A DNA stretch of 34,494 nt, taken from positions 1 through 34,494 of the forward strand of contig JBFMED010000073.1 in NCBI GenBank assembly GCA_040753475.1, in the 5' to 3' direction. The position numbers were made by a program, and so were the translations under genes. Positions 28,746 to 34,494 of this stretch are shown here, piece by piece (within the stretch, counting starts at the first letter, position 1; each line of letters begins with the position of its first letter). The DNA is from a bacterium (GTDB lineage: Bacteria; UBA9089; UBA9088). The notes under the pieces are model-generated. The model was not told the origin of the DNA, made no database searches, and saw only the letters and a program-made list of their open reading frames with translations.

Positions 28746-29924
28746 TTATTTTTCCTCCTCATAATATTCCTCATAAAAGATATAGGGATTCTCCCTTGGG
28801 TGAAAGACCATCTCTGGAATTGGCTTAAGCCCGATTGCTTCTACAAAATTCCCCAACCCAACCCTCTGGATGAGCTCTCCTATTCTCTCCCTTGCCTTTC
28901 CATGCTCATCCCAGAAATCCCACATTCTTCTAATCAATGCCTTAAGCTCATCGTAGGGCTTTTCTATCTTCATAAAGGGAACAAGCACAAAGGCAAGCTG
29001 GGCTCCCTCCTTAATCGGTGCCTTTGCTCCTATAAGAATAGCTGCTCCCCTTTCATCGCCAATGGAGAGTGCCTTTGGGATAATGTTTAGGCAATGCATA
29101 CACTTGCTACATTCACTATTGTCAATATTCAATGTCTTTCCATCCCATTCAATGCAATTCCTTGGGCATCTATCCACGATATCATTTTTAATATCTATCC
29201 CTTTTTCTACATATTCCATTATTGCATCCTGGTCTATTTTTATTTCATCCTTCCATATTCCAATGATTGCCAAATCTGACCTGGCAATACCTGCCACACA
29301 ATCATTTGGGCATCCTGCTGCTTTTACCTTGAATTTATAGGGAAAGAATGGCCGATGGATTTCATCCTGATAGCTAATTGTCAAATCATAGGTTAATGCC
29401 AGGGTGTCATAGCAGGCAAATTCACACCGGGCAGGGCCTACACAACAGCTGGGCGTTCTAATATCAGAGCCAGAACCCCCTAAATCCCAGCCAGCTTTGG
29501 AAAGCTCGGTAAATAAAGGTTCCAGGGAATCTGTATCTGCACCCAGCAGAACAAGGTCTCCGGTTGAGCCGTGAAGGTTGGTAAGACCTGAGCCATATTT
29601 GTCCCAGATATCCATAAGCTTTCTTAAGGCATCGGATGTATAAAACCAGCCCGAGGTCTGATTTACCCTTAGGGTATGAAAGTGTGCGGCGTCAGGAAAT
29701 TCATCGGGTAGGGCAGAAAACCTTCCAATTACGCCACCGCCATACCCCTTTACGCCAACAATCCCTCCATGCTTCCAATAGCCCCTTTTGTCTTTATAAG
29801 ACCTCTCAAGCTGGTTTAGAAGACCAATCGCCTTTTTGTTCTTTTCCCCGGCTTTCTTTATCTCTTTGACAAAGCTTGGCCATCTCCCCTTTTCTAATTC
29901 ATTTAACAATGGTGTTTCAGGCAT
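28746..29924 (-). CDS. dsrA: Dissimilatory sulfite reductase alpha subunit
   Basis: [38 protein letters not shown]. Confidence 0.92.
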
Positions 29925-30306
29925 TGCAACCTCCTTTATTTAGTGCCACAGGAAGTGGGCCTGCGGCAACAAGTTTTTTACGGCGAAAATCTATAATTGC
30001 TGGAAAACCTTCCAATGTTCTTGAACCAAGAAGAATAAGGTCACCCTTTTTTCCAAAAATAACCTCATCAATGGTTTCAAAGCCTTCGCTTTTAATCACA
30101 GCATAACCTACATCCCTTGTAATTATCTGGCCATTAGCCATTACAAACTGTAAATCCCTCTTTTTTACTGTAATTCCTGCCTTTTTAAGATAGCTTTCAG
30201 GAATCCATGTGTATTCAGAACCAGAGTCAACCATTGCTTTTACATCAACAGACCTTTCTTCTAATACTGGATTACTAACCGTGCAATCAACATAGAATAT
30301 CCCCAT
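29917..30306 (-). CDS. Retropepsin-like (clan AA) aspartic protease, small single-domain type
   Basis: [10 protein letters not shown] (D-S/T-G catalytic motif) and a [12 protein letters not shown] flap-like region, 129 aa. The stop overlaps the dsrA ATG (ATGCCTGA). The start is 1 nt after the dsrP stop. Confidence 0.7.
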
Positions 30307-30307
30307 T

Positions 30308-31489
30308 TTATTCCTCTATCCTTGCCTCCTTTGGAAGCAGGGGCAATATTTTAAGACCAAGCACATATAATATTCCTAGCATTGCAAATACAGAGACAAC
30401 CTGGATAAATTCAGGAAAGCTAACGCAATAGAAATCAAATGCACCATCCATAAAGGGGCTGGCAATGTGTTTTCCCGGGAAAAGCTCTAATGGATAGACC
30501 TGACCGGGAAATAGAATGATATACCTCTCACAAAAAACACCACAAACGACAAGAATTGAAGAGAAGATTACCCAGAATATCTCTTTTTTGAGCTTGGGAT
30601 GAAAGAGAATAATCAAGGGGATAATACAGCCAATCAAGATAAGCCCAATCCAGAATAATAATGAATATTCATTAAGGCTAAAAAGCATAAAATGGGTTGG
30701 GTAATATGTGTCGGGTGCATATATTCTAGTGAGGTTTTCTACAAAAAGGAAATATAGGACAACAATGATAAAAACCGCAAGCAATCTGGATAATCCAAGA
30801 AGAAGCCTTTGATCAAGAAAGCGATTAGTGCATTTAAAGGTTAGGGTCAATAAAACAATGATTAAGGCTGTGCCAGAAGATAAAGCTGCCGCAACAAAGC
30901 TTGGTGGGGTTAAGGGAGAATGATAAAGCTCCCTTGCCCTGATAAACCCAAATATTCCACCGGTTCCCGAATGAACAAGGATAGCAATAAAGACAGCAAT
31001 TACCCCTAATACCTTAATTGTTTTTTTCATCTCTTTTTCCATAGCAAAGATATAGACAAAGCATAGAAAAATATAGCTTGTATAAAACAGGGCATTCCAG
31101 GACAATATAGATTCTGGATTTGGATGGAAGAATAGCTCTAACACCCTCTCTGGCCTTCCCAAATTAAACCCTAGTGAAATAAGGGCACCGATCAATAATA
31201 TTGCGGCAAGGTAGGCGGCAACCCTTGCAAATGGCTTGTATTCCTTCTTTCCAAAGACAACCGAGAGGGATGATAAGATAAGGCTTCCCGCAGAAAGCCC
31301 AATAAAGTAAATGGTTAAAACCTTCATAATTCCCCAGGGGACATTGTTGGTCATCCCGGTAATGTAATACCCCTTGGTGAACATAATGTAGGAATAATAA
31401 GCTCCGGCAAGGGCAAGAATAATTAAGATTCCTAAAAATCCCCAAAACCTTTTATCTTTTCCTTCAATCCTACTAAAATACATCTTCAT
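30308..31489 (-). CDS. dsrP: DsrP (NrfD/PsrC-like integral membrane subunit)
   Basis: About 10 TM helices, 393 aa, in the dsrKJO..P context. Confidence 0.85.
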   Translation of the reverse strand: MKMYFSRIEGKDKRFWGFLGILIILALAGAYYSYIMFTKGYYITGMTNNVPWGIMKVLTIYFIGLSAGSLILSSLSVVFGKKEYKPFARVAAYLAAILLIGALISLGFNLGRPERVLELFFHPNPESILSWNALFYTSYIFLCFVYIFAMEKEMKKTIKVLGVIAVFIAILVHSGTGGIFGFIRARELYHSPLTPPSFVAAALSSGTALIIVLLTLTFKCTNRFLDQRLLLGLSRLLAVFIIVVLYFLFVENLTRIYAPDTYYPTHFMLFSLNEYSLLFWIGLILIGCIIPLIILFHPKLKKEIFWVIFSSILVVCGVFCERYIILFPGQVYPLELFPGKHIASPFMDGAFDFYCVSFPEFIQVVSVFAMLGILYVLGLKILPLLPKEARIEE

Positions 31490-31501
31490 TTAAACATCCC
31501 C

Positions 31502-31530
31502 ATTATATTAAAACAATCTCTTTTTGTTCA
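31502..31530 (-). promoter_or_regulatory. Possible internal promoter TGAACA-N17-TATAAT ahead of dsrP
   Basis: Minus strand reads TGAACAaaaagagattgttttaaTATAATggggatgtttaaATG. The -35 overlaps the stop of the upstream NTase gene. Confidence 0.3.
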
Positions 31531-31983
31531 ATGTTTGTTTTCGCCTTCTAGGTATTCCAAATCCCATTTATCCTGGGTTCTTCCATAAAATTTTTTAAGC
31601 ACAATAAGATCCTCACGGGAGATAAGAAAAACAGGCACATCTCCAAAATAAGATTTTGCTTTTTTCTCCCATGCCTCATTGAAACTAATCTTTTCCTGAG
31701 ATGTCCATACCTCTATCTTGAAAGGCTCCTCTCCTATTTCTAAACGCTGTCCTTTAACTAAAAATGCTTTTGGTTCTATGTTAACCCCAGCAAAATTTTT
31801 TATAGCCTTAACCATTCTTGTGCTGTTTTCTTCATCCTGCCTTATCCAAATATCCAAGTCTTTTGTAGCCCTGGCTACTTTAGTATGGAGCATAGTGCCA
31901 TAGGCACCAATAATGAGATATTCCACCCTATTTTTATTAAGTATATTAAGGAATCTTTCAAAGTCATCTTTGAAATTAGCCAT
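31528..31983 (-). CDS. Minimal nucleotidyltransferase-fold protein (DUF2204/DUF6036-like, family recalled from memory)
   Basis: VEYLIIGAYGTMLHTKVARATKDLDIWI fits the G[AS]...DxD NTase pattern, 151 aa. The ATG overlaps the stop of the 59-aa ORF (TAATG). Confidence 0.6.
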   Translation of the reverse strand: MANFKDDFERFLNILNKNRVEYLIIGAYGTMLHTKVARATKDLDIWIRQDEENSTRMVKAIKNFAGVNIEPKAFLVKGQRLEIGEEPFKIEVWTSQEKISFNEAWEKKAKSYFGDVPVFLISREDLIVLKKFYGRTQDKWDLEYLEGENKH

Positions 31984-32162
31984 TATTTTAAAAGCCTTAC
32001 AACATTCCTTTTTACATACATAGATTTTTTATCTTTCCCCAAGATTTTTACCCAGTATTGATACATTATAAACTCAATGGTTTTTAATAAATTCTCCCCT
32101 GAATCCTCTTTTAAATCTTGAGGTCTATCTTTAGAAACCCAACTTAATTTATATTTTATCAT
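31983..32162 (-). CDS. 59-aa ORF absent from the supplied track: MIKYKLSWVSKDRPQDLKEDSGENLLKTIEFIMYQYWVKILGKDKKSMYVKRNVVRLLK
   Basis: Hand translation of the minus strand. The ATG overlaps the dsrO stop (ATGA) and the stop overlaps the NTase ATG (TAATG), filling the dsrO-NTase gap exactly. Confidence 0.5.
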   Translation of the reverse strand: MIKYKLSWVSKDRPQDLKEDSGENLLKTIEFIMYQYWVKILGKDKKSMYVKRNVVRLLK

Positions 32163-32803
32163 ATTCCCAAATAATAAACCTTTGGCTTTAGCCTTAAATC
32201 TTCTCTAATTGCCTTTGCATCCTTTAGATTTATATTATTCAAATCACCAAAGGTAAAGACCTTATTTGGGCAAACCTCAACACAAACAGGCAATAACCCT
32301 TTGTCTACCCGATGCACACAAAAATTACACATTCCCGCCACACCAACCATCCTTCTGGGAACCCCTGGGTTGGTAATCTTGTTTTCCTTAAAGACAAATG
32401 ACCTTGCCTTGTATGGGCAGGCAATCATACAATACCTACAGCCAATACACCTGTGAGCATCAACCAAGACTATGCCATCATCCCTTATAAATGATGCCTT
32501 TACCGGGCAAACACGAACACAAGGGGCATCGCTACAATGATTGCAAAGCAAGGGAATATTTTTGCCCTCCATCTTTGCTATCCTTATCCAATAGTTATCA
32601 ATGGTTTTTTTCCCAAACATACCTAAATTATTCTCTTTTGCACAAGCCTTGACGCATTCATTACAACCATTGCATTTACTAGCATCAATAAGCATCCCAT
32701 ATTTCTTTTTCTTGGGAATGCAAGCAAAAACCTCATCTAGCCCAGAAATTGCTGTGCTTATCAGCAAAGAACCAGATATTTTAAGAAATTCCCTTCTATT
32801 CAT
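32159..32803 (-). CDS. dsrO: DsrO (periplasmic ferredoxin-like subunit with a Tat signal)
   Basis: NRREFLK twin-arginine motif, plus CNGCNECVKAC, CNHCSDAPCVRVCP, CIGCRYCMIACP and CNFCVHR...CVEVCP. Confidence 0.88.
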   Translation of the reverse strand: MNRREFLKISGSLLISTAISGLDEVFACIPKKKKYGMLIDASKCNGCNECVKACAKENNLGMFGKKTIDNYWIRIAKMEGKNIPLLCNHCSDAPCVRVCPVKASFIRDDGIVLVDAHRCIGCRYCMIACPYKARSFVFKENKITNPGVPRRMVGVAGMCNFCVHRVDKGLLPVCVEVCPNKVFTFGDLNNINLKDAKAIREDLRLKPKVYYLGI

Positions 32804-32806
32804 CTT

Positions 32807-33121
32807 TTAAGGATAATAATGGCAGTTAAAGCACAATGGCTTTACGCCAGCAAAATTATGGCACCTATTGCAAAAATTCTCTCTATTATGATGACACAAG
32901 ATGCAACTTGTCAAGGTAAATGAACCCCTTATCCCTTCCCTTACTGCCTTTTCCCTTGCTTCTTTTAATAGCTCCATATGGTTTTTTCTCATAAAATCCC
33001 TCTCCTGGACGCATTTTCCCTTAGGGAGAACAAGCTCTGGCTCTTCAGGCTTTCTAAAACCTTGTAATAAGATTGGCGAAAGCATAATTAAAATAAAGGC
33101 AAAAACAAGAAATATCTTCAT
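32807..33121 (-). CDS. dsrJ: DsrJ (triheme cytochrome c)
   Basis: Signal anchor, CILCH, CNRCH and CFNCH, conserved PKGKC cysteine. Lies between dsrK and dsrO. Confidence 0.88.
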   Translation of the reverse strand: MKIFLVFAFILIMLSPILLQGFRKPEEPELVLPKGKCVQERDFMRKNHMELLKEAREKAVREGIRGSFTLTSCILCHHNRENFCNRCHNFAGVKPLCFNCHYYP

Positions 33122-34494
33122 AAGACAATAGAGCGTCCAACCAGCTGATGGACGCCACCCACCATTTCCATGGGAAACCCAAACTTGGGAAATACAGCAC
33201 TAAATTGTGCCTTGCAGATTGCACAAATCAGAGCAAAGAAATTAACGCCGTCGCTATCTACAACCTGTTTCAGGGCATTCATCCTTGGAGTAGCACCCTT
33301 TAGCCTTATTTCCATAAGCTCATCGGTAAGAAGACCTCCACCCGCACCACAGCAAAATGTTTTTTCCCTTATGGTTTCAGGGTTCATCTCAACAAATTTA
33401 TTACAGGATGCCTTAATAAGGGCTCTGGGTATCTCAAATTGACCACCGGGAAAATTTCCCATTCTGGATGCCCTTGCCACATTACAGGAATCGTGAAAGG
33501 TTGCCACAAATTCATCATTTGCAGATTTATCAAGCTTAAGCAAGCCATCCTTGATTAAATTATAGGTAAATTCAGAGATATGCTCTGGGATGGGATATTT
33601 TGGGTCTAAATCAAATGGTCCTTGTAATGTATTCCAGAAATTATAGGCAACCCGAAAGGCATGGCCACATTCACCCACAATAAGCCTCTTTGGCTTAAGC
33701 TCTCTTATTGCATCAGCTATTCTCTTGGTTGTCTCTTGCATAACCCTATAGCTTCCAATGAACATACTAAAATTTCCCGCCTCAGAGGCATAGGATGAGA
33801 TTGTCCAGGAAATCCCTGCCTTATGAAACACCTTAGCATATCCCTTTAAAGACTCAATATGGGGAGAGGCAAAGAAATCTGCCGAGGGTGTAATAAATAA
33901 AACCTCCGCACCCTCTACATCCAGAGGAATACGCACATCAATGCCGCTCTCTTCCTTTATCTCCTCTTCCATAAAGCTAAGGGTATTTTGCAGGGCAGGC
34001 TTTTGTATCCCAAGGTTATTCCCTATTTCAAGAAACTTTACCAAAACCTCGGTAGTGTATTTTTGTCCTATACCAATTTCATCCATAATTTCCCTTGCCG
34101 CCATTGAAATCTCTGCCGTATCTATGCCATAAGGGCAGAAAACCGAACACCTTCTGCATTGTGAGCATTGGTGAAAATAGACAAACCATTCATTAAGGGT
34201 ATCTTCGCTTATCCTCCTTTCCCGATAAACCTTCCTAAATAGCTCAGCCCTTGCCACTGGCATATTCTTTGGGTCAGATGTCCCTAAGAAAAATTGGCAT
34301 TTATCACTACAAGAGCCACATCTAACACAAATATCCATAAATAGCCTCAGGGATTTGTATTTTTTAAGCAATTCTGACATCTTTGCAATCGCCTCTTTCT
34401 GCCAATTTTCTACCCTTGTCTTTGGAAAGCCAAGGAATTCCATATGGGCTTCCTTTGCCGGGTATGGCTTAATTGAGGCGGTTGCCTCCCTCTT
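33118..34494 (-). CDS. dsrK: DsrK (HdrD-like catalytic Fe-S subunit), N-terminus outside the window
   Basis: CVRCGSCSDKC, CSQCRRCSVFCPYG and the CCG domain (CCGAGGG). The frame stays open upstream of M-34443 to the window edge (KREATASIKPYPAKEAH-MEF...). Confidence 0.88.
   Translation of the reverse strand, partial: KREATASIKPYPAKEAHMEFLGFPKTRVENWQKEAIAKMSELLKKYKSLRLFMDICVRCGSCSDKCQFFLGTSDPKNMPVARAELFRKVYRERRISEDTLNEWFVYFHQCSQCRRCSVFCPYGIDTAEISMAAREIMDEIGIGQKYTTEVLVKFLEIGNNLGIQKPALQNTLSFMEEEIKEESGIDVRIPLDVEGAEVLFITPSADFFASPHIESLKGYAKVFHKAGISWTISSYASEAGNFSMFIGSYRVMQETTKRIADAIRELKPKRLIVGECGHAFRVAYNFWNTLQGPFDLDPKYPIPEHISEFTYNLIKDGLLKLDKSANDEFVATFHDSCNVARASRMGNFPGGQFEIPRALIKASCNKFVEMNPETIREKTFCCGAGGGLLTDELMEIRLKGATPRMNALKQVVDSDGVNFFALICAICKAQFSAVFPKFGFPMEMVGGVHQLVGRSIVL

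Follow-up and report, generated by a model that had tools for sequence, protein, structure and literature searches.

A cassette of two genes, an open reading frame (ORF) of 59 amino acids (aa) and a 151-aa nucleotidyltransferase (NTase), lies between dsrO and dsrP in the dsrMKJOP-dsrAB operon of a bacterium of the lineage UBA9089; UBA9088 (assembly GCA_040753475.1, contig JBFMED010000073.1). The window referred to below is the whole stretch of this contig that was analyzed, 34,494 nucleotides (nt) in length. We propose that the pair is a toxin-antitoxin (TA) module similar to MenAT1 of Mycobacterium tuberculosis, carried as a passenger in the dsr operon, and we would give this reading a probability of roughly two in three. 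It is carried by observations on the reality of both genes, the homology and fold of the NTase and its intact active site, the strict pairing of the two genes, the multiplicity of such pairs, and the absence or replacement of the pair at the same junction in relatives. Toxicity, neutralization, the identity of the toxic partner, a tRNA target, a phosphorylation mechanism and co-transcription with the operon are inferred from these. The resemblance to TA or abortive-infection modules that an earlier note on this DNA had suggested is supported by a match of the NTase to DUF6036, a profile match to the toxin MenT1, intact active-site residues, a conserved partner, and an architecture that recurs elsewhere. 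Two sequence-level findings that the earlier note would have counted against it, a 59-aa frame not conserved at homologous loci and an NTase lacking its catalytic Asp residues, were looked for and not seen.

The NTase matches the Pfam family DUF6036 (PF19502) over residues 16-143, scoring 36.1 bits where 23.6 are required (E 7.1e-9), and a Pfam scan of the whole genome likewise places it above the cut-off of that family. The related searches put DUF2204 just below its threshold (19.2 bits against 20.3) and gave no match to NTP_transf_2 or Polbeta (PF01909, PF18765). When the single sequence was compared with the PDB nothing was found, and it was only the profile of its family that reached MenT1: the 11-member profile matches MenT1 (8an4 and 8an5) at E 1.4e-9 across positions 5-148 of 154, whereas the same profile matches LnuA at E 0.022, and TM1012, LnuA and ANT(2'') as a group in the range E 0.004-0.02. 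An AlphaFold2 model of the NTase, built on eight sequences, has a mean confidence (pLDDT) of 90.2 and a predicted template modeling score (pTM) of 0.86. In Foldseek comparisons with the PDB this model aligns to MenT1, both alone and in the MenAT1 complex, with template modeling (TM) scores of 0.69-0.72, to TM1012 with 0.71, to LnuA with 0.65 (E 2.7e-5), to ANT(2'')-Ia with 0.64 and to MenT3/TglT with 0.58.

The residues on which MenT1 activity depends have counterparts in the window. A HMMER profile alignment pairs T40, D42, D44, K130, D138 and D141 of the NTase with T39, D41, D43, K137, D149 and D152 of MenT1, respectively, where the MenT1 residues follow the numbering of the papers (the index of the PDB chain is one lower, as confirmed by F28 and F38). 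MenT1 is inactivated by D41A, K137A or D152A, and its T39 auto-phosphorylates upon binding of MenA1 (PMC10435456, PMC11375011). Across two alignments and a set of 81 sequences, G26, T40, D42, D44 and the acidic motif-II residue E91 (mostly D in relatives) are invariant or nearly so, and the C-terminal motif is kept as well, with K130 in 80, D138 in all and D141 in 80 of the 81. T40 is likewise present in 81/81, a count that is biased because the pattern used to retrieve these sequences contained T-K-D-L-D, so that only the counts for K130, D138, D141 and E/D91 are unbiased; T40 is, however, also invariant in the two alignments that were gathered independently. In MenT3 the phospho-acceptor is S78. 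On these alignments the NTase is a member of DUF6036 and, though distant, a bona fide homologue of MenT1; its MenT-type active site is complete, the catalytic Asp residues included.

MenAT1 (Rv0078B/Rv0078A; PDB 8an4, 8an5) is the closest characterized system. Beyond the homology detectable in sequence and the common fold, the two NTases share the phospho-acceptor Thr, the DxD motif, the Lys and the two C-terminal Asp, and in both systems a very short protein is encoded immediately upstream, that of the window having no domain match. MenA1 is a 68-aa antitoxin encoded upstream of MenT1, with no DNA-binding domain and one long central helix (PMC10435456, PMC11375011); for the 59-aa protein a long central helix is seen in a low-confidence model only. 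The window NTase differs from MenT1 in being shorter (151 versus ~190 aa) and in belonging to Pfam DUF6036 rather than AbiEii/DUF1814, no similarity between its partner and MenA1 is detectable, and the pair sits inside a respiratory operon with no evident promoter of its own. AbiE (AbiEi/AbiEii) and MenAT3 (MenA3/MenT3, also called TglT/TakA) have toxins of the same Pol-beta NTase superfamily, and the weak PADLOC AbiEii matches of the NTase, its TM score of 0.58 with TglT and the relatives that match both PF08843 and PF19502 are further points in common. Their DUF1814 toxins, however, are ~290 aa long with an extra C-terminal domain, and their antitoxins are winged helix-turn-helix (wHTH)/COG5340 proteins of 200-300 aa, which are absent from the window.

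What is conserved in the 59-aa frame is the encoded protein. The closest homologue of the NTase (P0002, 65% identical, on a metagenome contig of the Joint Genome Institute) is preceded by a 64-aa ORF (P0009) that overlaps its start. This ORF and the 59-aa protein have 49% identity, the shared core reading E-F-x-M-Y-Q-Y-W-V-x-I-L-x-K-D...M-x-V-K-R-N. Between the two small genes the proportion of nonsynonymous differences (pN) is 0.34 and that of synonymous differences (pS) 0.64, a ratio of ~0.5; for the NTase and its 65% homologue pN is 0.23 and pS is saturated. A search with a hidden Markov model (HMM) of 1.84 billion representative proteins returned eight small proteins of the 59-aa family at E <= 0.001, along with two matches in much longer proteins that we attribute to chance, and a word-indexed search raised the family to 11 members of 59-77 aa with the core F-I-M-Y-Q-Y-x-V-x-I-L-x-K-D-P-x-x-M-R-V. 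Pattern scans of genome contigs and metagenome contigs recovered no further members, and the 59-aa protein has no match in Pfam, NCBIfam or PADLOC. It contains no His at all, and hence no HEPN motif (R-x4-6-H) is possible; its low-confidence AlphaFold2 model (pLDDT 57) shows one central helix at residues 22-40. By its conservation the 59-aa ORF is a real gene, and we regard its product as a putative functional analogue of MenA1 without detectable homology to it.

In every context recovered, the ORF of the 59-aa family stands directly upstream of, and overlaps, an NTase of the DUF6036 type or what is left of one. That NTase is intact in L038/L039 and in L047 and is cut by the contig end in L046; beside an intact small ORF it is truncated after 61 aa in L042/L043 and after 54 aa in L045, and it is frameshifted in L044. 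The NTase is thus truncated or frameshifted while the small ORF remains intact in three of six distinct contexts, and no intact NTase of this subclade was found without the small ORF. A pattern in which the NTase decays and the small gene stays fits a toxic NTase for which the small protein is the antidote.

We also considered the opposite assignment of roles, in which the NTase would be an antitoxin that AMPylates a toxin, as the minimal nucleotidyltransferase (MNT) does in MNT-HEPN modules, and the 59-aa protein would be that toxin. Small helical proteins can be membrane-active toxins, minimal NTases are the antitoxins of MNT-HEPN modules, and a module of that type occupies the same dsrO-dsrP junction in a congener of the source organism. 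The cassette also resembles MNT-HEPN (MntA/HepT, type VII) in being a two-gene unit with a minimal NTase. In MNT-HEPN, however, the NTase is encoded first and its partner is a HEPN RNase, whereas in the window the small gene comes first and its product has neither a HEPN motif nor a predicted transmembrane-like hydrophobic stretch. The NTase, for its part, is not an NTP_transf_2/MNT protein by Pfam and is homologous to a proven toxin, and, were the small protein the toxin, an intact copy of its gene beside a truncated NTase would be lethal. We therefore judge the reversed roles to be very improbable.

The two-gene architecture is not unique to the dsr locus, either in the source genome or outside it. 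The source genome (1.3 Mb, 86% complete; like all genomes compared here, a metagenome-assembled genome, MAG) encodes three paralogues of the NTase, with 39, 31 and 26% identity to it, and immediately upstream of each lies an ORF of 65-83 aa; there is also one degenerate pair made up of a 71-aa ORF and an 86-aa NTase fragment. The paralogous pairs are seamlessly embedded in strings of genes on the same strand, their neighbors being a leuA/cimA-type synthase and serA in one place, a membrane protein and der in another, and lpxB and an unknown gene in a third (the synthase, of which the C-terminal part is present, and serA were assigned from sequence by eye). All pairs of the genome being embedded in this way, promoterless in-line insertion is usual there and not special to dsr. 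Two of the pairs stand in tandem (L002:1483-2705), an intact one of 83 and 154 aa and the degenerate one, whose NTase fragment has an internal deletion. The same genome has seven HEPN and five PIN matches. Relatives carry between zero and seven NTase paralogues each, and none has an orthologue of the dsrO-dsrP cassette (best identity 36%). In one of them, G006, a pair of a 76-aa ORF and a 151-aa NTase that is 30% identical to that of the window lies 1.4 kb downstream of dsrP, in one gene string with dsrOP (L139:2030-2712), flanked by predicted membrane proteins that by eye are sulfate-permease-like before the pair, where the protein is multi-pass, and TauE-like after it.

More widely, the NTase family is present in at least 540 GTDB species-representative genomes from many phyla, and it is carried by eight plasmids; no homologues were found in phages. 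Among the best 80 of these at least 540 loci, at least 66 have an overlapping small upstream partner of 60-80 aa, which in 65 belongs to a single major family and in one to the 59-aa family. The major family, for which there is no Pfam model, has the consensus ...F/Y-W-Q...E-E-R-x-x-A...R-L-Q-R..., and its gene runs into the start of the NTase gene with a remarkably steady overlap of 47-59 nt. The one locus with a partner of the 59-aa family, L047, encodes the NTase that is closest to ours of the 80 (40% identity). A common origin of the two partner families was considered: hhalign aligned them in the expected register, but with a probability of 4.6% and P 0.009, and we treat it as unproven. 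In 21% of 68 loci there are genes on the same strand close by on both sides, a crude and purely descriptive figure taken from raw ORFs with no baseline.

Two side observations concern other members of these families. In two Blastocatellia MAGs (L040:2102-2948 and L041:2110-2971) the partner is 140-145 aa long and consists of an N-terminal DUF433 followed by the usual partner domain of ~65 aa; there the pair sits between leuD and leuB (leuCD-leuB) and shares overlapping codons with each of the two. The closest homologous cassette, that with the 65% identical NTase, adjoins a HAD hydrolase and not dsr, and a short way upstream of it an 80-aa protein with two CxxC pairs is encoded (L038:463-705). 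By eye it resembles a zinc-ribbon antitoxin of the YgiT/MqsA type, which suggests a TA-rich neighborhood.

At the dsr locus itself, the layout that the earlier note had described, with the small ORF and the NTase between dsrO and dsrP, overlapping codons and a short spacer, proved exact. All features lie on the minus strand and are given here in the direction of transcription:

33118-34443, minus strand: dsrK
32807-33121, minus strand: dsrJ
32159-32803, minus strand: dsrO, 214 aa, periplasmic Fe-S subunit (NCBIfam DsrO NF045797, 226.6 bits, above the equivalog cut-off of 200; Pfam Fer4_11)
31983-32162, minus strand: 59-aa ORF, putative antitoxin (ORF confirmed; family conservation)
31528-31983, minus strand: 151-aa NTase, putative toxin (Pfam DUF6036; MenT1 homologue)
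31490-31527, minus strand: 38-nt spacer (read from the sequence)
30308-31489, minus strand: dsrP, 393 aa, NrfD-type membrane subunit (Pfam NrfD, 206.6 bits)
29917-30306, minus strand: gene for a 129-aa aspartic protease (Pfam gag-asp_proteas; TIGR03698 below cut-off)
28746-29924, minus strand: dsrA

The NCBIfam DsrP model gives the dsrP product 94 bits, which is under its cut-off. The dsrO stop codon TGA is overlapped by the ATG of the 59-aa ORF (ATGA, 32162-32159), and the TAA of that ORF is overlapped by the ATG of the NTase (TAATG, 31985-31981). The GC content of the cassette is 0.30-0.36, against 0.38-0.44 in its flanks. In the spacer a GGGGA ribosome-binding site stands 7 nt ahead of the dsrP ATG. 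The promoter-like TGAACA-N17-TATAAT that the earlier note had pointed out is present at 31530-31502, with 10 of 12 matches, but as a promoter it does not rise above chance: the surrounding 5 kb holds 12 such sites compared with 13.7 +/- 4.1 in dinucleotide shuffles, and we give the motif no weight. Its TATAAT box ends 15 nt before the dsrP ATG, abutting the ribosome-binding site. A sequence scan detected no terminator-like site on the coding strand within the cassette, and no Rfam RNA was found. The codon overlaps, together with the lack of a terminator, make it plausible that the cassette is co-translated with the respiratory complex, as had been claimed. Insertion scars were sought at the cassette flanks, where there is no convincing target-site duplication or terminal inverted repeat; the best flanking repeat, a direct repeat of 25 nt with 72% identity, is taken as chance.

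The dsrO-dsrP junction was compared across the phylum, represented in our collection by 25 species genomes, 16 of which have an orthologous dsrO-dsrP locus. The contiguity of dsrMKJOP that the earlier note had taken to be normal holds here, as 13 of the 16 junctions have no recognizable gene, with gaps of about 14-310 nt, and the dsrP of the window is 54-65% identical to the dsrP genes of phylum relatives (46% in G006), which directly follow dsrO. The 59-aa/NTase pair is absent from this junction in the 15 other genomes examined. Two of those genomes have unrelated inserts. In the congener G002, the identical junction holds a 107-aa MNT and a 135-aa HEPN protein (L036:475-1174), both assigned by Pfam (Polbeta 51 bits and NTP_transf_2 49 bits for the MNT, 92 bits for the HEPN protein) and together qualifying as an MNT-HEPN module. 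The DNA of the source genome and of G002 is 93% identical as far as the final sense codon of dsrO (window position 32163), is unrelated beyond it, and resumes homology (86%) at window position 31420, 23 codons into dsrP. The dsrO of G002 has a deletion of ~121 nt and a frameshift, and its dsrP breaks off after ~266 aa, where unrelated sequence that contains a run of N begins; this damage indicates that the G002 locus is decaying or mis-assembled. In G004, a relative at the level of the order, a 329-aa DNA methyltransferase with an SPPY motif lies between dsrO and dsrP (L037:997-2526), followed by ~540 nt that are apparently non-coding, and the same position is empty in its congener G006. The methyltransferase could be a remnant of a restriction-modification system. 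No more dsrO 3' ends at the level of the genus were found in metagenomes.

That the pair is not conserved at this junction, and that unrelated cassettes take its place, points to a lineage-specific passenger. More generally, small genes, mostly of a selfish type, turn up repeatedly at operon junctions of this phylum. As a separate observation, clan-AA aspartic proteases recur at dsr operon junctions in differing positions: in G019 (L013:2322-2702) and G020 (L015:2251-2631), which belong to a different family within the phylum, a 126-aa retropepsin-like member is encoded between dsrJ and dsrO, and the 129-aa protein of the same type in the source genome is encoded between dsrP and dsrA.

The same comparison bears on the idea that the pair is an accessory of sulfate respiration, recruited for co-expression, which would nucleotidylate a protein of the Dsr/DsrC pathway or regulate the complex. 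Such a role would suit the tight coupling to dsrO and dsrP and the lack of a terminator or an evident promoter within the cassette. A functional accessory would not, however, be expected to be missing from the junction in all 15 other genomes and to be exchanged for unrelated cassettes in two of them, nor to have paralogues between unrelated housekeeping genes in its own genome and a closest homologue next to a HAD hydrolase. We consider this explanation extremely unlikely and continue to favor a TA module that is not part of the Dsr machinery.

Several points nevertheless weigh against a MenAT1-like module. With regard to the NTase, Pfam AbiEii/DUF1814 (PF08843), the family of MenT1, does not match it at E <= 1, and PADLOC models of AbiEii match it weakly (E 2.9e-5) and over its N-terminal 70 residues only (8-80). 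The MenT1 segment scores 36.1 bits with PF08843 and has no DUF6036 match, the NTase showing the reverse, although the relatives P0003 and P0007 match both PF08843 and PF19502. The NTase also exceeds, marginally, the cut-off of Pfam Aminoglyc_resit (PF10706; 22.1 bits against 21), with DUF6036 scoring higher, and in the Foldseek ranking TM1012 and LnuA, an antibiotic NTase, stand no lower than MenT1. For the small protein, the family profile reaches no PDB chain below E 0.88, MenA1 of 8an5 not being among the matches, and the AlphaFold2 model is unreliable and too poor for a fold search. The decay asymmetry rests on few contigs, two of which are unpolished Logan assemblies. MenT1 itself is not toxic in Escherichia coli (PMC10435456), although it is in M. 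smegmatis, and a heterologous assay may accordingly be uninformative. Finally, a literature search found no paper that names DUF6036; DUF2204 is named in one paper, which has no bearing on the matter.

The scores for Aminoglyc_resit and LnuA are what would be expected if the NTase modified small molecules, antibiotics or metabolites, in the manner of LnuA or ANT(2'')-Ia, with the 59-aa ORF unrelated or regulatory. TM1012 (PDB 2ewr/2fcl/4hx0), LnuA and ANT(2'')-Ia are best or near-best structural matches (TM 0.64-0.71) and of similar size (~150-175 aa), and TM1012 has no known function. Antibiotics are the substrates of LnuA and ANT(2''), which have no obligate small upstream partner, whereas for the NTase family such an overlapping partner is obligate across phyla. 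The family profile also lies much closer to MenT1 than to LnuA (E 1.4e-9 versus 0.022), T40 and the K130...D138..D141 arrangement are common to the NTase and MenT1, small genomes hold multiple paralogues (up to seven), and truncated copies are frequent, all of which make a small-molecule enzyme very unlikely.

A further possibility is that the module is decayed or inert, its genes intact by chance or through recent insertion and its toxin activity lost. Degeneration is visible in several relatives of the module, one case being the 86-aa NTase fragment in L002, and MenT2 is without toxicity (PMC10435456). Both ORFs of the window are nevertheless full length with all catalytic and regulatory residues intact, and the pN/pS of the small gene and the pN of the NTase are those given above (~0.5 and 0.23, the latter against the 65% homologue), so that we hold an inert remnant to be quite unlikely.

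Taking the pair as an active MenAT1-like module, we hypothesize the following course. A TA module would have entered the dsrMKJOP-dsrAB operon between dsrO and dsrP, as a passenger lacking a promoter. Read-through from the dsr promoter would provide for its transcription, and the ATGA and TAATG overlaps would couple its translation to that of dsrO. By extending the 3'-CCA ends of tRNA the NTase would prevent aminoacylation, which is how MenT1, MenT3 and MenT4 act. The 59-aa protein, predicted to be largely helical, may neutralize it by binding across the face of the active site, by inducing auto-phosphorylation of the conserved Thr40, which lies two positions ahead of the first catalytic Asp, or by both. 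The pair would then be a selfish or defense-type addition and not a component of the Dsr complex. Among papers that mention both dsrMKJOP and toxin-antitoxin, none, judged by titles and the opening lines of abstracts, appears to deal with a TA cassette inside dsrMKJOP.

We have also entertained the broader notion that the dsrO|dsrP junction, and other dsr junctions, serve in this small phylum as a landing or exchange site for promoterless addiction or defense cassettes that ride on dsr transcription, which we regard as rather unlikely on present evidence. If it were true, the expression of sulfate respiration would dictate the dosage of both a tRNA-modifying toxin and its antitoxin. Growth might then be arrested when dsr transcription stops, or a horizontally mobile island of sulfate-reduction genes might be stabilized against loss. 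A TA pair with no promoter of its own that is, as its overlapping codons suggest, translationally coupled to an essential respiratory operon would in any case be an unusual regulatory situation. For the annotation of sulfate reducers, the extra genes found here inside dsrMKJOP are to be read as interchangeable selfish cassettes, whether TA pairs or a methyltransferase, and not as new Dsr subunits.

The 59-aa partner represents a new family. Two small partner families are defined by this work, and no database model covers either. For DUF6036, an uncharacterized Pfam family, we propose a function as a tRNA nucleotidyltransferase toxin of the MenT1 type, and the conserved phospho-acceptor Thr may extend the proposed antitoxin-induced auto-phosphorylation beyond DUF1814. 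A separate and likewise rather unlikely possibility is that the widespread combination of a partner of ~65 aa with a DUF6036 NTase, present in at least 540 genomes, constitutes an unrecognized major branch of MenAT-type systems.

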